From: Haliotis cracherodii
Lineage: Eukaryota
NCBI RefSeq assembly: GCF_022045235.1
Contig: NW_027266297.1
Coordinates: 34,844,001 to 34,908,000 of the forward strand
Length of the DNA: 64,000 bases
Reading direction: 5' to 3'
Positions within the stretch are counted from its first letter, which is position 1. Each line of letters begins with the position of its first letter. This document shows, piece by piece, positions 38,101 through 41,100 of the stretch. The translations under genes and the position numbers were made by a program. The notes under the pieces are model-generated. The model saw only the letters and a list, made by a program, of their open reading frames with translations. It did no database searches and was not told where the DNA came from.

Positions 38101-41100
38101 TATATGTGTACATTGTAGCCATTGTATCATCCTTCCTGCAACTAATAATCCAATTTAATATTTCTTTTCCTCCAACCTCTACAGCTGGGCTGCCAGGTGA
38201 GGGTTATACCCTTTCATTCACTTCAACAATCTCCCGCGATTGACTTATATATGTCTGCAAAAATTAAATAAAAAATTGAAACAAAATTCCACCACTGAAT
38301 GGATTTTTGCTAATTTTTACCTTCACCAGATCTGAAACTTCTGTATTTTGACAGTTGTCGCTGTCTCCTTTATTCAAATTTCAAATAATCTTTTGACACA
38401 AGTGGGATAACTCTATGACTGACAGACTTCTTGATTAAGTATCGCGGGAGACTGTTAATCATTCATTCCATATTTTTTTTCTTTTCAAGTTTGAAGAATT
38501 CCACACTGTCCTGTCACATGACACCCCAATCCAACTTATGCGTCATTTTAATCCCTTTCCACCCAAACACTGCGTGTTTTAGCATTCTGATATTGGTGGA
38601 TCGAGGTTAAAGCGAACATGGTGCGGGGACCTATTTCTGATCTGTCACTCTTCATGGCTAATGCGCATCCAAAGTAGCCAGAAACTGACTCACAGCTAGA
38701 CATTCACATGGAATGAAAACACAAATGTCAAATTTTCAAAGAAGGTCACACCACTGAATGTTGCTAGTCACAGATAGATATCACGAGAAAGGAATGGAGA
38801 CCAATCTGCATACAGCCTTTAGATATGAACACACTATTTGGGAATGCCTGCTCATCACACAACCAAACACACGTGTAGGACACGATACCTTAGATTATCT
38901 AATGCATGGCTGCCTAGACACACATGGGCCACAAAAGCTTTCAAGTTTGTAATTCTTTGAAGTAAATAAGTCAGCACGTTCATTTTATTTCAGAAACCGT
39001 TATGAATCAATGTACCTTGAGTATGACCTTGAGAATATGTTACAAAGGGAATATTTATTAAATAAGATCAGCATGATAGATATCTTACATATACATGCTT
39101 TGTCTGCTCTCAAGCATGAATCAACTTTCCTCAAAATGTATTTTCAAAATATTTTTGTGATTTATTCATTCTGAAAGAAATTTGTTCATAAAAAAATACA
39201 TCTTATTTATGCATGCTGACATTCCTAATAAAGTCTTGTCCTATTTCGAAAAAGCGAAGTTTTGATTTTAAGATTTATGACAACAAAGGCATGTTGTCAT
39301 GGAAATATACGAGATATGATTTTGCATGCAAAGGGGTTCTTTTCAGTTGAACATGAAATTTGATAAATAATAATTCCGTACATTTCATGGGCTTTTGTTT
39401 GGATAAGTTTGATATCATACACCATCTGATATTGTAACGTTCTTCTGTCTCTACTTACATAGATGTGGAACTTTAATCTGTGATGTGTGATATTTTTATT
39501 TTGACAGAAAATAAGGATTTATGTTCATTTGTGTTGTTTAGGATGAATGCCCAAAGATGTAGCACTGAAAATTCAAAATACAAGTTTTAGATAGGTCACT
39601 GACTGGAACATTACATACCAAATTGAAATGGTTATACCAGACATGAGTATATTCAATTGTCTCACACTTAATGGTAACTGTGGAAGAGACTTTGAAAATG
39701 CAACTTTTCCTGTGTTTATGCTATGAATTCAACAGAGCCATTGCGCACTCCCCATGCAACACCATGTGCATCAGTTGTACAACTGTGCGCGATGCCGACA
39801 TGCTTTCTGCTTCAATAGATCTGTGTGCACAAAGCGCATATGCAACCAACCATAGGTCGAAATTATGTTATGGGCATAATTTAGCAAACCTCCCAAAATA
39901 TTTCGGATATTTGCGCAAATAAAAGACAAAATTGCAATCATGCCGCAAAGCTGTTAACGATCGCAAAATTGTATTGTAGAATAATGATGCCAACCTTGTT
40001 TTGCAGATTTTAGCGCGTTTTGTCGTTTGCGTACATTATGTATGTTTGAATCTTTTATAGTGCCTTATCAACCTCTCAACCTTCATGCTGACCCCATTTC
40101 TGCGAATGAGATCGATGTTGTGTGGGATCCTCCCCAGGAAGCAGATTCCATCGACAGTTACGAACTTTATTACAATGACTCACATTTCCGCCAAAATGTC
40201 CGCTTGAGTATCAACCCGCCTGTCGCAAAATTCCGCCTGACAGACTTGACCCCAGACACTGTGTATCATATCCAAGTGTCCGCCAAGTCAAAAAGAGGCG
40301 AGGGACCCAAGACGCCCACGATACAAGCAAAGACGAAACAATTCAGTGAGTTTTTCCGCAGTGGTTGTAGTAACTGTTGCAGTATTGTTGATAAGTTTTT
40401 TGTGGCCCATATATAAGTATTGTCTGTGGCAGTGGTCCCATTGTAATCAGTTCTTTTTTCCAAGCCACTGTGTTAAGTTAACTGTTGTAGTGCAGTACTT
40501 TGCGAGATTTTTGTGTTTGATTTTATGATGAAAGAGCTCACGGGATCTTGGTCAAAGGTAAGTGAACAGAAGTAAATTATGCAATATTTGATTCAGGAAC
40601 TTGATTAAGATCATTTGATTTTCAAATCATAATGAACCTGATCTTGACATTTCTTCTTTTAAAATCTTCCAATATTAAGAAATAATGTTTTTCGTAATTG
40701 TCATAAGATATCAAGAAATTAAATTGCCGTTAGCAACAGATGACAACGTAATACAGGAACAGGTAATATTTATTATGAAGAAAAAATGTTTCTGTGCATA
40801 AAGTAAGACTAGTTTAAGGATTATAGTTTTTGGTAGCATCATTGGTTATATTATTATGTATCCTGATCCCTGAAATTCATTTGTTTGGTGTATATATTTA
40901 GAGTGTATATACTGTTTAGAAATGAGATCCATACCCACTCGATGTTGTTGTTGTGAACACTATACAGTGAGAATAGCTGTTGTAGATATTCAATGGATCA
41001 AAGCTCACATACCAAGTTTAGTCCAGATTGATTGTGATGTGTTATATATTAAGGGACTAGATTTAAGGTAAGTGAGATTAGCATAGAGAAAGGTCACGGA

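Follow-up and report, generated by a model that had tools for sequence, protein, structure and literature searches.

A predicted stem in an abalone Lar intron as a possible short RNA bridge between Nova-type motifs and an alternative 12-nt microexon

In the abalone Lar gene's pre-mRNA, an inverted repeat that starts 28 nt after an alternative 12-nt microexon is predicted to form a 20-pair stem whose base is flanked on both sides by YCAY motifs. We tentatively propose, at a probability of about 0.4, that this stem is a short RNA bridge of the Nova type that promotes inclusion of the microexon. According to the model, the repeat would fold co-transcriptionally and loop out 188 nt, and by geometry the distance to the distal YCAY cluster would be cut from 263 to about 30 nt. 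The three YCAYs of this cluster would join a proximal pair about 20 to 45 nt behind the microexon donor, and the joined motifs would constitute a Nova/pasilla enhancer to which Nova presumably binds. Bound Nova would then promote inclusion, as expected from the Nova RNA map, in which downstream binding enhances; folding predicts that a hairpin partly conceals the donor to be helped, with a presumed effect on its use.

The window (the whole 64,000-nt stretch of Haliotis cracherodii DNA that was analyzed) covers the larger part of a + strand gene for a LAR-type receptor tyrosine phosphatase, with Ig, FN3, and tandem phosphatase domains and best matches to Lar/PTPRF/D/S. When compared by tblastn to isoform P0026 of H. 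rufescens, the window yielded 22 exon matches at 90 to 100% identity. The exon at 40061–40345 (+ strand), supported by spliced contigs and tblastn, is 98% identical to Lar of H. asinina, and its top match is the third FN3 repeat of human PTPRF (6tpw) and PTPRD (4yh7); it therefore corresponds to FN3 domain 3 in vertebrate numbering, and the FN2-FN3 linker is split by the 4,077-nt intron at 35984–40060. The exon upstream of this intron (35785–35983, + strand, ending in …VLTTQG) was located by tblastn to P0026 and by spliced joints that leave at 35983; it encodes the end of the FN3 domain equivalent to vertebrate FN2, as numbered from an alignment to human PTPRF. Self-comparison of 264 kb, 27% of which was masked, revealed no repeat in the intron. 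Elsewhere in the gene, a tandem repeat array lies in a Lar intron (window 45122–45976) and contains long repetitive open frames on both strands.

To follow splicing across the linker, we used contigs of four RNA-like runs aligned to 35600–40600: X7 and X8 from organism A, X14 from organism C, and X16 from organism D. We took the runs to be RNA in view of the exon joints in their contigs and of a depth over exons several- to ~20-fold that over the intron. The letters of the 12-nt microexon (38185–38196, + strand, encoding AGLP) are present in the joint from 35983 to 40059 in contigs of X7, X8, and X16, while X14 contains a direct joint that skips it. Among the joints listed, inclusion is thus seen in three of four runs and skipping in one, and any run may contain both forms. 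The microexon reported in the preliminary description is therefore genuine. Similar inserts are found in Lar isoforms of other gastropods, AGFQ or GFQ in six of eight from Pomacea and AGYQ in five of six from Babylonia; none occurs in 7 Littorina or 4 Patella Lar sequences.

The order of residues across the linker in P0026, TTQG-APIFD-AGLP-V, revealed a second, 15-nt microexon, which lies upstream of the first (37147–37161, + strand, encoding APIFD), has AG/GTAAGT borders, and is absent among the spliced joints listed. Mutually exclusive use of the two microexons is ruled out, since P0026 contains both; depending on their use, the FN2-FN3 linker in the ectodomain of Lar would be lengthened by 0, 4, 5, or 9 residues. 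Octopus isoforms have VPVNKPVIFD and/or a 2-residue insert at the equivalent place. Inserts in Pomacea, Babylonia, and octopus indicate that gastropods and cephalopods alike use the linker as an alternative site, and the resemblance of APIFD to octopus PVIFD suggests that the 15-nt microexon likely predates the gastropod-cephalopod split. A scan of metagenomes for the 12-nt microexon with its donor gave three matches, all three without flanking homology, i.e., chance matches.

Several other features of the gene and its splice sites were noted. Upstream of the window on contig C34, at distances of about 31.6 and 49 kb, lie two further small exons that P0026 contains and isoform P0001 lacks: one of 24 nt at the Ig2-Ig3 junction, the position of vertebrate meB, and one of 30 nt between Ig1 and Ig2. 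Strong acceptor-like sites occur at 38031 and 37794 (ranks 5 and 4 of 181 AGs), the former followed 2 nt later by GTAAGC and the latter with an AG that overlaps a GTAAG; neither is used among the joints listed. The end of the 12-nt exon, CAG|GTGAG (38194–38202), contains an AG with an acceptor score of its own (rank 11 of 181); this AG|GT arrangement resembles a recursive splice site. An inverted repeat of 27 nt and 70% identity over the acceptor of the 15-nt microexon (37123–37149 with 37923–37949; −20.2 kcal/mol) was not judged to be above chance.

The stem itself is formed by arm 1 at 38225–38247 and arm 2 at 38436–38456 (both + strand), as defined by pairing and folding. The preliminary description had given it as ~21 bp with one mismatch and a 2-nt bulge, closing a loop of ~190 nt and starting 28 nt behind the microexon donor. 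These values hold up well: we find a run of 15 Watson-Crick pairs with one A·C mismatch, a 2-nt UG bulge, and 5 further pairs (20 pairs in total), a loop of 188 nt (38248–38435), and a spacing of 28 nt from the microexon end at 38196. The label “long-range” is overstated for such a loop. The predicted duplex energy is −26.1 kcal/mol. The stem appears in both minimum free energy (MFE) and centroid folds (z = −2.92; none of 100 shuffles is equally stable), with pair probabilities of 0.82 to 1.0 in all five folding contexts from 0.37 to 1.6 kb. Folding also predicts that a 6-pair hairpin (38199–38213, + strand) covers the donor of the 12-nt exon from position +3 to +8, with pair probabilities of 0.24 to 0.82 over the five contexts and no change in the relatives compared; it resembles the stem of tau exon 10. 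As for A-to-I editing of the stem, no other letters were found in contigs of X7 and X8, but contigs lose rare variants.

The stem is the top duplex of its 4-kb intron, yet 14 of 200 dinucleotide-shuffled introns yield an equal one. Among the 471 duplexes of the window it comes 9th, and 191.6 kb of unmasked neighboring DNA contains 25 non-repeat duplexes of at least its strength. The window’s strongest duplexes are formed by a small element present in two copies with long perfect inverted repeats (22731–22836 and 59781–59869), likely a real MITE family. In contrast to the strength of the stem, its position is unusual: of 600 start points drawn at random from unmasked sequence, 0.5% have a stem of this kind no more than 50 nt away. 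Thus, strength alone is unexceptional, and what stands out is the location beside a donor. Donor-proximal stems were found at two of five small, probably alternative Lar exons compared to 0 of 27 other, approximately mapped donors; when the discovery case is set aside, the count for small exons is one of four. The second such exon, a probably alternative one of 42 nt near the N-terminus that is included in P0026 and absent from P0001, is followed about 10 nt after its donor by a single-copy hairpin of −46.4 kcal/mol (C34:34771413–34771510), which is the strongest non-repeat duplex in 264 kb and has no comparable YCAY cluster. The second-best duplex of the linker intron has 11 perfect pairs (arms 36193–36203 and 36358–36368, + strand; −24.9 kcal/mol) and starts 210 nt after the upstream donor; the listed differences of organisms C and D lie between its arms.

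Sequence variation among close relatives was counted over 38186–38506 in organisms B, C, and E; organism D was left out since its list is partial. Variable sites numbered 16 of 188 in the loop, 1 of 44 in the arms, and 1 of 89 in the flanks. The loop differs from arms and flanks taken together (16/188 compared to 2/133; Fisher P = 0.005), although several of the changes in the loop occur in more than one species or lie close together at 38414–38421, so that they are not independent events and their count is inflated. The difference between the arms alone and the loop is not significant (P = 0.13), and conservation in the arms does not exceed that in the flanks. In organism C, 12 of the 39 substitutions of its 3.2-kb contig fall within the loop (34 of the 39 were visible). 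The sole change in an arm, at 38226 in organism E, has a depth of 3.3 and may be an error; it breaks one outer pair without compensation, thereby leaving the outer 4-pair helix weaker, while the probability of the 11-pair core remains at least 0.92. Organism B has a 2-nt deletion in the TA run adjoining arm 1, which leaves the arm intact, and no change is listed for arm 2 in organisms B, C, and E. Compensatory substitutions in the arms were not seen among these relatives, which, being ~97 to 99% identical, provide no power to detect covariation. Of three runs of organism E, one could be aligned here, at about 97% identity, and the other two yielded no aligned contig. The variable loop between constant arms and flanks, together with a microexon site kept in molluscs, favors the bridge at the tentative level given above.

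Motif scanning revealed YCAY motifs on both sides of the stem base. The proximal pair (TCAT TCAC, 38214–38221, + strand) ends 3 nt ahead of arm 1, and the distal cluster (TCAT TCAT TCCAT, 38459–38471, + strand), a candidate Nova site, starts 2 nt after arm 2 and is followed by a U-rich tract. The distal cluster is the only place in the 4,077-nt intron with at least three YCAYs per 20 nt. All five motifs are predicted to be unpaired (probabilities of 0.91 to 0.98 and 0.88 to 0.98 for the proximal and distal groups, respectively), and no change in them is listed in the relatives. Among unmasked 20-nt windows, 0.42% contain at least three YCAYs; two random windows total at least five with P = 7.7 × 10⁻⁴, a value to be read with the reservation that the two flanks form an 8-nt near-direct repeat and are, for that reason, perhaps not independent. 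The YCAY hypothesis is post hoc: YCAY was the one of 64 degenerate 4-mers to reach five in the two flanks, and P is about 0.05 after correction for 64 motifs.

A candidate for the protein partner is encoded in the same genome. Two tested domains of a three-KH gene (C45:13404475–13409361) have Nova as their best match in PDB (E = 3 × 10⁻²³ and 2 × 10⁻²³), and the gene, judged by its sequence, is a Nova/pasilla orthologue. According to the excerpted literature, Nova sites are YCAY clusters (PMC10790352), Nova and fly pasilla follow one RNA map conserved between mouse and fly in which downstream binding enhances (PMC3165201), a conserved Nova enhancer serves exon 6a of vertebrate Ptprf (PMC2014790), and pasilla co-regulates fly microexons (PMC8797185). 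RNA bridges are defined in an excerpt of PMC8052449 by an exon and a protein site that each lie within 50 nt of an arm. Here, a stable duplex is predicted, the alternative exon lies 28 nt from arm 1, and YCAY motifs lie 2 nt from arm 2. At a distance of 263 nt downstream, the distal cluster might also act without a bridge.

A somewhat unlikely alternative is that the stem is a chance duplex in a conserved, repeat-free regulatory intron, whose arms are kept for their primary sequence or simply because divergence time is short. The frequency of equal duplexes in shuffled introns and in neighboring DNA agrees with it, as do the lack of covariation, the uncompensated arm change, and the finding that the flanks are conserved like the arms in an intron that is repeat-free and slow-changing throughout. 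However, chance does not readily account for a stem less than 50 nt from an alternative donor, for the concentration of variation between the arms, or for a YCAY cluster adjoining the stem base.

Another alternative concerns the origin of the stem and is compatible with the Nova bridge. MITEs and non-autonomous hAT-type elements have terminal inverted repeats and create a target-site duplication. The abalone unit resembles them in its inverted ends around about 200 nt and in an 8-nt near-direct repeat (7 of 8 alike; 38214–38221 and 38459–38466) that abuts the slightly extended arms, looks like a target-site duplication, and has a chance probability of 1.7%. The unit could thus be a relic of an old ~237-bp inverted-repeat element inserted into a donor-proximal YCAY cluster, with ends that were kept because, once paired, they exclude the insert as a loop and bring the cluster back to its former spacing. 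Its fast-changing interior would fit such a history. However, we consider both the insertion and this reason for keeping its ends unlikely. Unlike a typical element of this kind, the unit is single-copy in a 1.18-Gb genome, with one match each for the stem region and the loop and no second copy of the interior. The shared core of the arms occurs 14 times with at most one mismatch compared to 13 for a reversed control, and exactly only in the two arms; the outer-arm pattern occurs 9 times compared to 18 for its control (all counts from DNA searches are lower bounds). None of 15 other arm-like matches has homology to the interior or an inverted partner at fewer than four mismatches in 14. No empty site was seen either, as all close relatives compared carry the unit. 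The concern that the arms might be terminal repeats of a multi-copy MITE is thereby not borne out: no MITE family was found in these searches, and the flanking 8-nt repeat leaves a single ancient insertion a low probability.

It is quite improbable that the stem acts through local structure at the donor without Nova, either by organizing or competing with the hairpin at +3 to +8 or by offering the U-rich tract to proteins of the TIA/PTB type. The donor is largely paired in all five folds, a U-rich tract does follow the distal YCAYs, and the donor of another small Lar exon is followed by the single-copy hairpin of −46.4 kcal/mol, which lacks such a YCAY cluster. However, the stem overlaps neither the donor nor the donor hairpin, and no switch between alternative folds was seen in the five contexts.

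That the stem is single-copy, not a MITE, and beside a genuine alternative microexon makes the splicing role suggested in the preliminary description plausible, while both mechanisms proposed there found no support. One was that the stem could conceal a truncating exon; use of its acceptor, at 38329, would lead to a truncated, secreted, or NMD-targeted product. The AG is present as described, with a branch-like motif and a phase-1 frame that reaches TAA after 19 codons, and structures near cryptic sites are a known pattern, as stated in the excerpts of PMC8052449. Nevertheless, this reading is very improbable. The site scores 2.2 bits, 39th of 181 intron AGs and below all 28 mapped Lar acceptors, from which the matrix was built (heuristically mapped, a few probably misplaced), and the ~440 nt behind it contain no consensus donor. 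In two relatives (organisms C and E), T>G changes have altered its pyrimidine tract, and the arms do not overlap the site. In all four RNA-like runs, one unbroken contig spans 38329, while contigs break at true exon ends; contigs lose rare forms, and rare or NMD-degraded use of the site would escape such an analysis. The other mechanism, an RNA bridge for distal Rbfox sites, is hardly credible: the intron does contain three TGCATG sites downstream of the stem (38903, 39210, and 39323), but the nearest is 447 nt past the distal arm (447 to 448 nt for (T)GCATG), far beyond 50 nt, and a seed scan at spacings of 30 to 400 nt revealed no nested stem reaching 38903.

The proposed Nova bridge can be compared to systems described earlier. 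Both an RNA bridge and a Nova intronic enhancer are already known kinds of regulation, which limits the surprise. Described bridges include those of ENAH and KIF21A for Rbfox and 296 human candidates, among them RALGAPA1 for RBFOX2/QKI (excerpts of PMC8052449 and PMC10790352). As in ENAH and KIF21A, one arm lies less than 50 nt from the cassette exon and a factor motif less than 50 nt from the other arm, and at −26 kcal/mol the abalone stem is stronger than the ENAH bridge, for which the excerpts of the same sources give −19.4 to −19.8 kcal/mol. In contrast to the human bridges, it spans just 188 nt, the factor motif (YCAY) lies on both sides of the stem base, the host is a mollusc, and the case is predicted from sequence alone. 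The arrangement also resembles the NISE2-type Nova enhancer of Ptprf exon 6a, in which YCAYs likewise cluster downstream of an alternative exon that is small and belongs to a LAR-family gene (PMC2014790, excerpt); however, the abalone exon is a different one, and its cluster would be assembled by base pairing. Looping by Nova is described in the excerpted text of PMC10790352 as a consequence of protein binding at both intron ends. Among the matches listed in a literature search, no title dealt with molluscan Lar microexons or with a stem-assembled Nova site.

Microexons of vertebrate LAR-family genes set the choice of synaptic ligands, and those named meA to meD are located in Ig2, between Ig2 and Ig3, in FN5, and near the membrane. 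Like meA-meD and the post-FN8 microexon of vertebrate LAR-RPTPs, the abalone microexons add in-frame ectodomain inserts of 4 to 5 residues; unlike them, they lie in the FN2-FN3 linker, where the excerpts of PMC10883964 and PMC13080001 name no vertebrate microexon. The enhancer of vertebrate meB is given in these excerpts as an upstream UCUCU/UGC element, and the terms “secondary structure” and “stem” do not occur in the excerpted text.

A broader and, as a whole, distinctly unlikely proposal is that molluscan Lar has its own combinatorial microexon code in the FN2-FN3 linker, common to gastropods and cephalopods, in which a Nova site brought into being only by folding of the stem would switch one abalone exon; the stem itself would consist of the domesticated ends of an old insertion, an insert that interrupts the site in DNA and loops out in RNA. 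A compact bridge of less than 300 nt with a two-part Nova site would be easy to study in a minigene and would allow the interplay of RNA structure and Nova to be followed outside vertebrates and flies. If the FN2-FN3 linker does carry alternative inserts across molluscs, this would be a parallel code, in a lineage whose nervous systems are complex.
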